Shown here one piece after another: positions 1,077-5,215 of a DNA stretch of 39,938 bases; the first letter of the stretch is position 1, and each line of letters begins with the position of its first letter. The position numbers and the translations under genes are program-made. Under the pieces are notes generated by a model that worked only from the letters and a program-made list of their open reading frames with translations, was not told the origin of the DNA and did no database searches. Source of the DNA: a virus (Duplodnaviria; Caudoviricetes); the IMG/VR virus record IMGVR_UViG_3300017560_000159, positions 1 to 39,938 of that record. One strand, written 5' to 3'.

Positions 1077-1448
1077 ATGCGCGTCCTGATCGTTGACGAC
1101 GATTTGATGACTGCTGAAATAACCGCCGATTGCTTGATGATGGATCCTGCTGTCTCGGTCCAGATCGCTGGCGACGGTGCAACAGCTCTACGTATTGCGG
1201 CCGAGTTTTTGCCCGACGCAATTCTTTTGGATATCCAGCTGACCGATATGTCGGGTCTTTACCTAGCTCCGCGACTTAAGGCAATCTGCCCCGACCGCGC
1301 GCCCCGTGTCATTCTTTTCAGCGGCAGCGTTCAAGAAACGGATTCCGATTACTTGCCGGATGGCGTAGATGCTTGGCTAACGAAGCCTGCGCATCTCGAT
1401 GCGTTGCTGGACTGCATCTTTCGACCGACAGGCGAAAAAAGGAGTTGA
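1077..1448 (+). CDS. Single-domain response regulator receiver (CheY-like)
   Basis: RVLIVDDD acidic pocket, phosphoacceptor D52 (ILLDIQL), S82, K103-P; no output domain; RBS GGAGG. Confidence 0.9.
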   Translation: MRVLIVDDDLMTAEITADCLMMDPAVSVQIAGDGATALRIAAEFLPDAILLDIQLTDMSGLYLAPRLKAICPDRAPRVILFSGSVQETDSDYLPDGVDAWLTKPAHLDALLDCIFRPTGEKRS

Positions 1449-1474
1449 CCAACTAGGGCATAATGTCCTATTAT
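1445..1474 (+). promoter_or_regulatory. Sigma70 promoter overlapped by a KorC-type operator
   Basis: -35 TTGACC (1445-1450), -10 TATTAT (1469-1474); TAGGGCATAATGTCCTA (1454-1470) is one mismatch from the IncP-1 KorC operator TAGGGCATAATGCCCTA. Confidence 0.8.
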
Positions 1475-1525
1475 TCATTTCAAGGCCGGCGCACACCGCG
1501 CAAGGTCACCTACCGGAGAACTCCG

Positions 1526-1975
1526 ATGAACCAGCAAGAACAAGCCACCGTCCAAGCCGCAATCGCGATCCTGGACAGGCACCTGAAGCAGCCCGGCGTT
1601 GCAGCCAACAGCCCCAAGGCCATCAAGCAACTGCTGCGCCTGGCGCTGGAAACCGAAGAGCGCGAAGTCTTCTTCGTTCTCTTCATGGACTCGCAGCTCC
1701 GCCTGCTGTCTGCCGAACCCCTCTTCTACGGCACGATTGACCAAGCCCCGGTGTTCCCCCGCGAAGTCGCCCGCCGCGCTCTGATGCTGAACGCTGCGGC
1801 CCTCGTCATCGCCCACAATCACCCGTCCGGCAATGCCACCCCGTCCGAAGCGGACAAGCGCATCACCAAGACCCTGCGCGCGGCGCTGGAACTCTTCGAT
1901 GTGCGTCTGCTTGACCACTTCGTGGTGGGGTCCGGTCAGATGACCTCGTTCGCAGAAGCTGGCCTGATGAACTAA
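1526..1975 (+). CDS. radC: RadC-family JAB domain protein (mobile-element type)
   Basis: EREVF...GTIDQAPVFPREV...AHNHPSG..PS.AD...LLDHFVVG; start MNQQEQ after GGAG. Confidence 0.9.
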   Translation: MNQQEQATVQAAIAILDRHLKQPGVAANSPKAIKQLLRLALETEEREVFFVLFMDSQLRLLSAEPLFYGTIDQAPVFPREVARRALMLNAAALVIAHNHPSGNATPSEADKRITKTLRAALELFDVRLLDHFVVGSGQMTSFAEAGLMN

Positions 1976-1983
1976 CAAGGAGG

Positions 1984-2001
1984 GGCCCGGGAAACCGGGC
2001 C
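1984..2001 (+). other. GC-rich hairpin between radC and korC
   Basis: GGCCCGG-GAAA-CCGGGCC; weak U tract, so possibly a partial terminator or stabilising stem. Confidence 0.5.
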
Positions 2002-2010
2002 TATTGACCT

Positions 2011-2280
2011 ATGGAAACTCGCGTACCCTACGGCGCCCCCGCGATCCGTCCGGAATGTCTCCGGTCTTTTGCCGACGGCTGGCAGCAACCCGAAGCGGGC
2101 GAAGTGCGCGCTGTGCTGTCTATGGCCGGCCTGACCGGCGGCGAAGCGGCAAAGCTGCTCGGGATCTCGGACGGCAGGACTATCCGGCGCTGGACCGGCG
2201 GCGATTCGCCTATCCCCTTCGCTGCCTGGGCGATCCTGTGCAACGTGGCAGGCCTGGGCGTGATCTGGGCCAAGCAATAG
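2011..2280 (+). CDS. korC: KorC-family HTH transcriptional repressor
   Basis: IRPECL...WQQP...EVRAVL..AGLTGGEAAKLLG...RTIRRWTGGDSPIPFAAWAILC..AGLG.IW closely matches the IncP-1 KorC sequence as I recall it; a matching operator lies upstream. Confidence 0.85.
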   Translation: METRVPYGAPAIRPECLRSFADGWQQPEAGEVRAVLSMAGLTGGEAAKLLGISDGRTIRRWTGGDSPIPFAAWAILCNVAGLGVIWAKQ

Positions 2281-2323
2281 CAGCGAAATTCTCTTGCATC
2301 ACAACACGCAAGGAGTGCCACAA

Positions 2324-2590
2324 ATGAGCAAAGACAAGCGCTTGGATATGGACGCAGCGCGAAAGCTAAACCTGACACTGGCCACCGGCAAAGTCGAGTG
2401 CCAGGTCTCCAATCGTTGGCTTCAGTTCCCGAGCGAAGCTCCGCAGTTTTCCGACGGTGCATACGTGTTCGTGAACGTGATGACGGAATCGGAGACCGGG
2501 ACTGAGCGCAAGCTTTGCGAGCTCATTCTCCGAAAGCACGAGCTCGAGGAAGTGTTGTCGAGGGTCCGGGTGCGGCCTAGCGGCGATTAG
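2324..2590 (+). CDS. Hypothetical protein
   Basis: Strong RBS AAGGAG before ATG 2324; follows korC on the same strand. Confidence 0.7.
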   Translation: MSKDKRLDMDAARKLNLTLATGKVECQVSNRWLQFPSEAPQFSDGAYVFVNVMTESETGTERKLCELILRKHELEEVLSRVRVRPSGD

Positions 2591-2816: not shown

Positions 2817-2860
2817 CAAAAGACAAGCCCCCGCTCGAATATCCGGCGGGGGCTTTCGTT
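2817..2860. terminator. Probable (bidirectional) intrinsic terminator after tRNA-Ser
   Basis: AAGCCCCCGC...GCGGGGGCTT stem with T-rich flanks on both strands. Confidence 0.65.
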
Positions 2861-2864
2861 TATG

Positions 2865-2952
2865 TGGCGGGCAATGCAGGATTCGAACCTGCGGGGCGGC
2901 GTCACCCTACGGGTTAGCAACCCGCTGCTTTCGGCCTCTCAGCCAATTGCCC
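2865..2952 (-). tRNA. tRNA-Ser(GCU)
   Basis: GGGCAAT/ATTGCCC acceptor, G discriminator, encoded CCA, anticodon loop TTGCTAA, long variable arm, GCAGG-TTCGAAT-CCTGC T arm. Confidence 0.93.
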
Positions 2953-2959
2953 TAAAGAA

Positions 2960-3084
2960 GTGCCGGGCCAGATGTGTGCTGCAAATGGAATCGTTGCACA
3001 CCCACGCCCTAAACGCGCTCTCTATCTTGAACTCGCTTAGGGATGATTCCACTGAATGCCAGTTATTCCCCGGCTGGGGCATTT
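2960..3084 (-). ncRNA. Candidate structured RNA between the ribozyme and tRNA-Ser
   Basis: Helices AATGCC/GGCATT, GTGGAATC/GATTCCAT and CCCTAAGCG/CGTTTAGGG, plus a crossing GTGTGC/GCACAC pairing. Confidence 0.45.
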
Positions 3085-3130
3085 CCGCGCGACCTATCGG
3101 TTTCGGCTATTCAAGCCTCATCAGGCACGG
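3085..3130 (-). ncRNA. Type I hammerhead ribozyme
   Basis: CCGUGC-CUGAUGA-GGCU(UGAAU)AGCC-GAAA-CC(GAUA)GG-UC^GCGCGG: full canonical core, three stems, GUC cleavage triplet (cut between 3091 and 3090). Confidence 0.88.
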
Positions 3131-3132
3131 TG

Positions 3133-3205
3133 TGGAGCGGGCAGAGGGAATCGAACCCTCGCTGCACGGCTTGGAAGGCCGGCGGCTCACCATGAGCATG
3201 CCCGC
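3133..3205 (-). tRNA. tRNA-Gly(UCC) with atypical D arm
   Basis: GCGGGCA/TGCCCGC acceptor, U discriminator, CCA, anticodon loop CTTCCAA, GAGGG-TTCGATT-CCCTC T arm; short D loop and 4-bp anticodon stem. Confidence 0.75.
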
Positions 3206-3324
3206 GGGTTGCGCGGCTGGGATTCGAACCCAGGGACCCCACAGCATCGGATGCGCGCTCCGCTGCAAGGTCTATAGCGGCATCACCCTTCGTCCAGACC
3301 TTCCGGCATCTCGGGCACCGCGCA
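3206..3324 (-). ncRNA. tRNA-like RNA with enlarged centre and no canonical anticodon arm
   Basis: Acceptor TGCGCGG/CCGCGCA followed by ACCC, T arm CTGGG-TTCGAAT-CCCAG, class-II-like D region; 119 nt. Confidence 0.6.
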
Positions 3325-3360
3325 AAAACAAAACCCGCCGGCTTTCGCGTGGCGGGTTTC
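3325..3360 (-). terminator. tR'-like intrinsic terminator after the late promoter
   Basis: AAACCCGCC...GGCGGGTTTTGTTTTT on the minus strand. Confidence 0.8.
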
Positions 3361-3394
3361 GTGGGCGGACTTCTGAGGAAATCCGTTATCGGTG

Positions 3395-3423
3395 ATTATG
3401 GCGGGAGTTTTCCGCACAGTCAA
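3395..3423 (-). promoter_or_regulatory. Late promoter (pR'-like)
   Basis: TTGACT-17 bp-CATAAT immediately after the Q-like gene, followed by a terminator. Confidence 0.85.
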
Positions 3424-3426
3424 CGA

Positions 3427-4017
3427 TCAGGGGATAAATCCTCCATCGCGCAGCAGCTTCTCGGCTGCGGCGTGCGCGGCTTGTTCGACACCGTAGATGG
3501 GCTCAGCGCCTTTCTTCTCGCGCGTCCCACGCAGCCAGTCGTTCGCCCTGGCGCTGGCCCGCTCCACGCTGCGCACCTTGCACGCATACTCATCGGCCAA
3601 GGATTGCAGGGTCCGAACGGTGCCGCTGTCGTAGTAGCGGCGCACGAGGGCGTACAGCAGCTCACTGTGGGCGGTACGCATAGACAGGTGCGCGCCCAGC
3701 CTCCCCGCGATCTTGTACATTGCAGCCGTCCACCCGGGGTGATCCGCTTCGCTGTGGCAGTGCTTGCAGCTTGCCACGCGCTGACCATAGCGGGCGTGCA
3801 GTACGGCCACATGCAGCGGGTCCAGGTTCCGTTCCAGGAACTGGCGAACCTTCCCGATCTCCGCGCAGCCGTCGGCACCAGAAAGCGGCCCCGGCTCGCC
3901 CAGGCGCATGTCTGCCGCGCGCGCCATCGCCGGCCGGTTCAGCGTATGCCGCTCATCGCTGAATGCGTACGCCAGCGCAACGGCCAGGCGCGCAAAAGGC
4001 GTATTGCGTTCGCTCAT
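3427..4017 (-). CDS. Late antitermination/activator protein (Q-like)
   Basis: Last early gene before the pR'/tR' pair; CKHC motif and C-terminal HTH-like segment. Confidence 0.7.
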   Translation of the reverse strand: MSERNTPFARLAVALAYAFSDERHTLNRPAMARAADMRLGEPGPLSGADGCAEIGKVRQFLERNLDPLHVAVLHARYGQRVASCKHCHSEADHPGWTAAMYKIAGRLGAHLSMRTAHSELLYALVRRYYDSGTVRTLQSLADEYACKVRSVERASARANDWLRGTREKKGAEPIYGVEQAAHAAAEKLLRDGGFIP

Positions 4018-5034: not shown

Positions 5035-5215
5035 ACAAGACCAGCCATTCCTAGACTGGCCTTCACATGAACCGTCGCCGTATCCATGACCCGCCAGCCG
5101 TTCGATGTTCGGGCGCTAGCTTCGCCACCCTTATGCCTGTCTCAACATCTTTCCCACGGTAGGCAATCTTCCCCAGGCGCCGCGGTTAAGGTGTCCCACC
5201 GCCTGGGTGCTGTAA
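5035..5215 (-). ncRNA. Candidate pseudoknotted RNA (or structured origin) after the primase
   Basis: Five helices plus a crossing GATGTT/AACATC pairing; several G-U pairs on the minus strand. Confidence 0.5.

Follow-up and report, generated by a model that had tools for sequence, protein, structure and literature searches.

A type I hammerhead motif joined to a conserved, predicted double-pseudoknot RNA between two tRNA genes of a lambda-like phage

Type I hammerheads have been described from phages and prophages (Perreault et al. 2011, PMC3088659; Rfam clan CL00010), where they have a full core, three stems, an open stem I, and an intergenic prophage site; the main text of that paper names tRNA once, in its reference list. 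Theta ribozymes, which are minimal HDV-like ribozymes (Kienbeck et al. 2024, PMC10879173), are self-cleaving motifs that lie behind phage tRNAs on the same strand, and that paper makes no mention of hammerheads. According to PMC6765202, the purpose of bacterial and phage hammerheads is largely open. The locus presented here has likenesses to both systems. Its hammerhead agrees with the prophage hammerheads of PMC3088659 in core, stems, topology, and intergenic prophage site, yet it is joined to a conserved double-pseudoknot RNA and lies as an insert within a tRNA array. Like a theta ribozyme, it stands behind a phage tRNA on the same strand; however, theta geometry is opposite to that of a type I hammerhead, and the tRNA-Gly here encodes its CCA, compared with 4.5% of theta-linked tRNAs in PMC10879173. 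We rejected theta membership, as the fold is that of a hammerhead without an HDV-family Rfam match at E ≤ 10, and the predicted cut lies 42 nt from the tRNA 3' end rather than the at most 5 nt given in PMC10879173.

The window, meaning the whole stretch of DNA that was analysed (39,938 nt), is the complete virus record IMGVR_UViG_3300017560_000159 and carries a lambda-like temperate phage with an integrase, a CI-type repressor, terminase, portal, head, tape measure, and tail fibre J. For comparison, we used 33 related loci that hold relatives of the protein in the Q position, with 2.5 kb flanks, some of them the same prophage in two collections. Relatives of this protein at 60–100% identity occur in viral contigs and in Achromobacter genomes, which make up six of the seven genome matches; the protein itself had no PHROG and no significant Pfam match, and the profile search did not confirm it as Q. 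On the minus strand, the order is Q-position gene, promoter, tR'-like hairpin, tRNA-like element, tRNA-Gly, hammerhead, 132 nt of non-coding sequence, tRNA-Ser, and terminator-like hairpin (Table 1). The leader with the tR'-like hairpin was matched in all 33 related loci, and the hairpin would make the RNA unit dependent on antitermination. The tRNA-like element, present in 8 of the 33, has a 7-bp acceptor stem and discriminator A and looks like a class II tRNA mimic; ARAGORN made no call there in the window. Elsewhere in the window, positions 5209–5089 (minus strand) match the Rfam Betaproteobacteria-1 RNA at 102.7 bits, and small counter-oriented genes (1077–2590, plus strand) lie between the tRNA unit and an HNH gene, among them a lone response-regulator receiver, a PHROG 'DNA repair protein', and unknowns.

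Table 1. Features of the late RNA unit and its surroundings, in minus-strand order
Feature	Coordinates	Strand	Basis or remark
196-aa ORF in the position of late antiterminator Q	3427..4017	-	identity proposed from position only
sigma70-type promoter TTGACT-17-CATAAT, pR'-like	3395..3423	-	1 found vs 0.2 expected in shuffles
GC-rich hairpin then U-rich run, tR'-like	3324..3362	-	in MFE; unlisted by terminator scan
tRNA-like element	3211..3323	-	acceptor stem and T arm, enlarged anticodon region, no encoded CCA
tRNA-Gly(TCC), encoded CCA	3133..3205	-	matched in 24/33 related loci
175-nt inserted cassette (hammerhead and knotted RNA)	2958..3132	-	empty-site alignment; X7 contig joint
Type I hammerhead motif	3085..3130	-	predicted cut C3091/G3090
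Double-pseudoknot RNA left by predicted cut	2962..3090	-	covariation; covariance-model match 169 bits (by construction)
tRNA-Ser(GCT)	2865..2952	-	tRNA scan
Terminator-like hairpin and U-run closing the unit	2818..2855	-	sequence, MFE; partly listed by terminator scan

The original prediction placed a full-consensus hammerhead beside the tRNA on the minus strand, and every element it listed was found in its place, with no equal among 400 shuffles. The motif begins 2 nt past the tRNA-Gly CCA, after a CA spacer (3132–3131). Stem I pairs CCGUGC (3130–3125) with GCGCGG (3090–3085) and contains one U-G wobble; the core consists of CUGAUGA (3124–3118) and GAAA (3104–3101); stem II (GGCU/AGCC, 3117–3114/3108–3105) has the loop UGAAU; and stem III (CC/GG), closed by A15.1-U16.1, has the loop GAUA. 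U16 is at 3092 and C17 at 3091. The core positions C3 U4 G5 A6 N7 G8 A9, G12 A13 A14 A15, and U16 H17 are unchanged, the core-adjacent pairs 10.1-11.1, 1.1-2.1, and A15.1-U16.1 are all formed (G-C, G-C, and A-U), and the topology is that of type I, with stem I open and loops closing stems II and III. All three of the features by which Perreault et al. (PMC3088659) recognised such hammerheads are thus present in 3130–3085, and the core is invariant in 12 of 12 aligned homologous cassettes.

For the 46-mer, both the MFE and the centroid structure are the hammerhead fold (-15.3 kcal/mol), and this folding energy taken by itself is unremarkable (z -1.74; 15 of 200 shuffles were equally stable). 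A sequence-only pattern was discarded as evidence, since its five matches in the window are at chance level (3.6 expected). When stems were required, the descriptor found exactly one type I match in the window, and 400 dinucleotide shuffles gave one loose match and none with equal stems. The best Rfam model, HH9 (RF02275), was matched at 23 bits (E 0.004; model positions 13–62 of 77 only) against a gathering score of 52, so that a gathering-threshold Rfam scan misses this hammerhead; the low score lowers its membership of the Rfam model and leaves the consensus features intact. A contig from a separate wastewater run, probably DNA (X5), is identical to the window over 2933–3156, so the junction is not an assembly artefact. 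Among the matches listed, loop II varies across 30 members, with no conserved stem I partner seen on inspection. As far as sequence comparison can tell, the hammerhead at 3130–3085 is real, and of a kind already known from prophages; its self-cleavage is predicted.

Directly downstream lies a conserved RNA (3084–2962) that the earlier annotation had missed. Its helices are P1 (3083–3078/3060–3055), P2 (3074–3069/2967–2962), P3 (3052–3045/2992–2985), the P4 hairpin (3042–3034/3015–3007), and P5 (3001–2996/2979–2974), of which P2 and P5 form pseudoknots. The hammerhead and this predicted double-pseudoknot RNA of ~125 nt together make up a cassette of 175 nt. No helix of the window's copy is broken, and its differences from homologues include compensatory changes. 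Pattern scans of viral and metagenome contigs gave at least 61 distinct anchor matches; among the matches listed, we counted as members the 43 that hold both halves and set aside 18 one-half matches, most of them chance. These counts come from anchored patterns, which missed one copy (L258) that the covariance model found. Seventeen of the 43 listed members follow the window's order (form B), and 26 are circularly permuted (form A); in the permuted order, the ends are closed by P4 and the hammerhead occupies an internal arm. An alignment of 12 form-B cassettes has 96.4% of its cells paired, against 35–41% in slid controls, and 25 of 49 pairs change on both sides; none of 500 shuffles reached this level, in a control that ignores relatedness and for a structure drawn from some of the tested sequences. 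Across the 43 listed members, true partners pair more often than shuffled ones (P1 0.97 vs 0.65, P2 0.93 vs 0.75, P3 0.99 vs 0.62, P5 0.95 vs 0.67).

The hammerhead core stands at the same position in 37 of the 43 listed members (all 17 of form B and 20 of 26 of form A), so the predicted cut would always start the RNA at the same conserved segment. A strict hammerhead fold is found in 30 of these 43; the six form-A members without the core and the 12 of 26 that fail the strict fold, again among the matches listed, suggest that cleavage is not essential to the knot. Degenerate hammerheads occur within the family (L302, L347). At another locus (L294, 633–731), a form-A knot without a hammerhead sits between tRNA-Gly and tRNA-Lys in an array of eight tRNAs. 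Among the listed members, 4 of 43 have a tRNA at most 30 nt upstream, two of these four having come from tRNA-anchored scans, and 10 of 43 have one within 100 nt on either side, so that a link to tRNAs is real in a minority. Near-identical E. coli variants are among the 43 and inflate the non-tRNA count.

The cassette is present in Dickeya phage Setonix and in Pectobacterium phages Pappous and Taid, and in Pappous it lies just before tRNA-Met with no tRNA annotated upstream. In the T7-like Enterobacter phage SDFMU_EhYP, it occupies the gap between capsid and tail genes, where no tRNA is annotated. It also occurs in 15 of 5,426 E. coli genomes, in lambdoid late leaders, and the four loci opened have it between Q and holin. 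Rfam 15 has no family over 3084–2962 at E ≤ 10, and for eight form-A loci only tRNAs scored above gathering. We found no report of the cassette in the full-text literature searched, which lay mostly outside subscription journals and took in part of the supplementary files of PMC10690425. On this comparative evidence, the cassette is a mobile, uncatalogued element spread through unrelated phages.

The related loci show what the site looks like when it is empty. Neither the hammerhead nor the 132-nt stretch was found in any of the 33 by descriptor, BLAST, or covariance model, and in six of them, of about three types, tRNA-Gly and tRNA-Ser adjoin with 4–5 nt between them, which bounds the 175-nt insert at 3132–2958. 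The cassette thus sits between the CCA of tRNA-Gly and a 5-nt spacer before tRNA-Ser. One contig from another run (X7) has a joint that skips 176 nt, from 2956 to 3133, and in a further one (X6) other sequence fills the slot. The empty-site alignment shows neither flanking repeats nor a target-site duplication at the junction. In a series of related loci (L171–L203), the position after the CCA of tRNA-Gly is a variable slot that holds a terminator, tRNA-Ser, or other cargo. Conservation in related prophages, which had been proposed as a check, came out on both sides: the core is unchanged in the 12 aligned homologous cassettes, but the motif is absent from all 33 related loci.

The nearest copy (L258, the same prophage as L708) is identical at 158 of 175 positions and follows a promoter and terminator, with no tRNA upstream. 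Directly after it (L258, 758–841) lies a decayed tRNA-Ser-like gene with anticodon GCG, which ARAGORN calls Arg at a low threshold. A DNA search in 401 genomes of the host's order had no match, nor did the covariance model in five Achromobacter genomes; a short pattern in 401 family genomes gave mostly chance matches and one real one (G571, the same prophage as L258). None of the RNA contigs spans the cassette, and two of them (X10, X11) hold the tRNA region only, a result that says nothing about expression.

The short stem III had suggested cleavage that depends on a dimer or is regulated, and the family does not bear this out. Among the matches listed, 26 of 30 folded homologues have 3–9 pairs beyond A15.1-U16.1, and four of the 30 have two, as in the window. 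The isolated stem III strand is partly self-complementary (-5.6 kcal/mol for the dimer vs -1.7 per monomer), and loop III varies, the other two-pair members having GAAA, GGAA, and AAUA, from which no conserved palindrome emerges. Dimer dependence as a family trait was rejected in view of the longer stem III of most members and the variable loop, although this one copy may still form a dimer. For the monomer, the predicted pairing of stem III is 0.7–0.9. Stem I is predicted to pair at 0.74–0.96 when the upstream tRNA folds are formed and the transcript ends by 3050, at 0.17–0.33 with the knot region included, and at 0.04–0.43 in an unconstrained long transcript, all in models that carry no pseudoknots. 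These models favour the monomer once the upstream tRNA folds form, though not in unconstrained long transcripts.

We think it reasonably probable that the hammerhead cuts itself and thereby gives the knotted RNA a defined 5'-OH start, rather than maturing tRNA-Gly. With type I geometry, 6 nt of the hammerhead stay on the downstream product and 42 nt on the upstream one, and the small remnant on the 3' product makes this geometry suited to making 5' ends. Because the predicted cut always gives the knotted RNA the same 5'-OH start, the hammerhead likely matures this cargo. The original prediction of a cut at 3091/3090, a 42-nt trailer, and a downstream 5'-OH stands, as a set of predictions from a confirmed motif. 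The unit would be transcribed late, from the promoter at 3423–3395 through the tR'-like hairpin, and the hammerhead would fold as a monomer during transcription and cut at 3091/3090. RNase P, acting at the 5' end of tRNA-Ser, would set the 3' boundary, leaving a 138-nt RNA (3090–2953) that exonucleases may shorten as far as the P2 pseudoknot. The 5'-monophosphate-dependent RNase E acts poorly on a 5'-OH end, and the last bases would be paired, so the freed RNA may be stable. The tRNA-Gly would be left with a 42-nt trailer ending in a cyclic phosphate, for host RNases to remove; even a review (PMC6277466) leaves it unsettled if trimming gains or suffers from an end of this kind. The freed knotted RNA would most likely act in trans by binding a protein or ligand, for example as a decoy from which the phage profits late in infection, and this is the least certain step. 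tRNA arrays and late leaders would be convenient slots in which the ends of a knotted RNA get made.

Other readings of the locus have to be weighed against this one. The role originally proposed was processing of the tRNA array, with tRNA-Gly released as theta ribozymes release their tRNAs, and the start of the hammerhead 2 nt after the CCA speaks for it. So does the recurrence of the arrangement on other contigs, where tRNAs of many isotypes have a type I hammerhead at most 20 nt from their 3' end (at least 16 distinct hammerheads), two loci (L001, L159) hold the same cassette after a tRNA, and one (L096) has a bare hammerhead between two tRNAs. The recurrence of hammerheads beside phage tRNAs is well founded, but we now consider the role quite unlikely here, since all 33 relatives do without the hammerhead, including the six with the same tRNA pair, since the hammerhead travels with the knotted RNA and no tRNA lies upstream of the nearest copy, and since a cut 42 nt from the CCA falls outside the ±5 nt given for theta ribozymes in PMC10879173. 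A cassette that acts in cis, with cut and knot as a processing or stabilising cap that protects downstream RNA such as late mRNA, would agree with the placement of homologues, which precede holin in E. coli prophages and tail or head genes in lytic phages, and with the proposal in PMC3088659 that prophage hammerheads process polycistronic RNAs. It is nevertheless unlikely: a tRNA and a terminator-like hairpin follow in the window and would keep the knot apart from any mRNA, P4 closes form A on itself with the cut inside, and the knot between two tRNAs at L294 has no hammerhead at all. RNase P alone also bears on the first of these readings, as its cut at tRNA-Ser would by itself separate the two tRNAs.

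The two circular permutations, the patchy spread through unrelated phages, the clean insertion, and the hammerhead itself could also be those of a selfish mobile RNA, similar to a retrozyme, that spreads through a circular intermediate and is conserved for the needs of replication. However, each unit has one hammerhead, and so does the window; the junction lacks flanking repeats and a target-site duplication; members without a hammerhead retain the fold; and the slot after the CCA takes many unrelated cargos, as fits ordinary recombination between phages, all of which leaves this reading improbable. Finally, the window's copy might be a passenger of recent arrival, with a slow or inactive hammerhead that has a short stem III and possibly needs a dimer. 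Its stem III is indeed at the short end of the family (two pairs in 4 of 30 among the matches listed), the strand is partly self-complementary with the dimer energy given above, and the family includes degenerate hammerheads; but the perfect core, the intact helices with their compensatory changes, the predicted monomer pairing of stem III, and the lack of a conserved palindrome make it very improbable. Maturation of the knotted RNA's 5' end remains the reading we prefer.

Hammerheads in other phages are informative about what such cuts may produce. Two tRNA-anchored scans, the first over 19 of 64 parts, gave at least 170 loci, and these hold the 16 or more tRNA-adjacent hammerheads counted above. 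Downstream of the cut lies the same knot (L001, L159), a tRNA (L060, L126, L096), or other sequence. In L096 (324–404), the bare hammerhead fills the whole gap between tRNA-Asp and tRNA-Gly and would cut 8 nt before tRNA-Gly. Five more tRNA-adjacent hammerheads fall into two groups with similar downstream sequences (L024, L153, and L154; L032 and L167), which are possibly further families of cargo RNA. A broad scan for hammerheads before tRNAs, over 9 of 64 parts, gave at least 120 loci; among the matches listed, there were five hammerheads, none beside a tRNA. A stricter scan, which asked for a tRNA T loop after the hammerhead core, yielded 76 loci, of which 20 have a type I fold, and in 10 distinct hammerheads an ARAGORN tRNA starts at most 60 nt from the cut. 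In nine of these 10, the predicted cut coincides with the mature tRNA 5' end, at +1 of tRNA-Tyr(GUA) in eight and at G-1 of tRNA-His in one, while the tenth leaves U-1 on tRNA-Gly; no cut falls at 2–59 nt, and the scan pattern itself leaves room for about 30 offsets only. G-1 is the mature 5' end of tRNA-His. Two more loci, a Tyr-like one that ARAGORN misses (L701) and a His one cut at G-1 (L126), add to these. The tRNA-Tyr units are L642 (the same as L060, with two units), L639, L641/L644, L668, L685, L702, L633, and L701; the tRNA-His units are L656 and L126, and the tRNA-Gly unit is L666.

In these units, the 5' strand of stem I is complementary to the 5' strand of the acceptor; as the descriptor requires stem I pairing, separate evidence comes from the coincidence of the cut with the start of the acceptor and not from the pairing. 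The Tyr units are mostly homologous (70–87% identity) and represent few lineages rather than ten independent events. RNA repair genes are no regular companions of these loci: among five records with such units, three of them less than 90% complete, a T4-type RNA ligase was found in one and an AAA_33 kinase above the cut-off in one, and no cultured phage matched either of two units tried beyond the tRNA part. Judging from the predicted cuts, these loci could bypass RNase P in their phages. They support the spirit of the original tRNA-processing idea, though in other phages and with the 5' end of the following tRNA as the site. In a further set of loci (L649, L651, L673, L692, L423, L434), hammerheads, often paired, would cut roughly 20–40 nt before the start codons of phage ORFs, which is like the known arrangement for operon processing. 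A wider reading, on which we are close to evenly divided and which we offer tentatively, is that phage type I hammerheads are general makers of 5' ends, here of an active knotted RNA of a new class, with binding or catalysis as its activity, and elsewhere of tRNA-Tyr and tRNA-His without RNase P.

The locus points to a concrete role for a hammerhead, as the 5'-end maker of a cargo RNA. It is also a natural experiment, with close relatives that have and lack a cleanly bounded cassette and with copies in E. coli prophages and cultured phages. If the predicted tRNA cuts are true, some phages would make mature tRNA 5' ends with their own ribozyme, bypassing RNase P and giving 5'-OH tRNAs. To our knowledge, ribozyme-made tRNA 5' ends that bypass RNase P are known from laboratory constructs only. 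The literature searched, mostly outside subscription journals, has no report of hammerheads beside phage tRNAs or of such natural units.

Among known systems, the knotted RNA is closest to GOLLD and ROOL (Weinberg et al. 2017, PMC5737381), which are likewise pseudoknotted, of unsettled function, and often near tRNAs or in prophages. It differs from them in its size (~130 nt rather than ~580 nt or more), in having no Rfam match, in its hammerhead, and in its two permutations. Being small, strongly conserved, doubly pseudoknotted, present in two permutations, and absent from Rfam, it fits a biochemically demanding RNA by the criteria in PMC5737381. We considered two further types of hammerhead element and rejected both. 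The dimer hammerheads of Penelope-like elements (summarised in PMC6765202) are also type I with a short stem III, but their loop III is palindromic and extremely short and they occur in tandem, compared with a variable 4-nt loop and a single copy in the window, where GAUA is only partly self-complementary and the type I match is the only one. Retrozymes, as defined in PMC7761336, have hammerhead direct repeats at both ends and a target-site duplication, neither of which is present here. There is also a likeness to the engineered hammerhead-tRNA 'transzymes' (PMC12259135, PMC12636597), in which a hammerhead placed 5' of an RNA generates that RNA's exact 5' end. Those are laboratory constructs, whereas the cargo here is a knotted RNA and elsewhere a natural tRNA-Tyr or tRNA-His. 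Natural transzymes, if the predicted cuts are true, would be the 5'-end counterpart of theta ribozymes.
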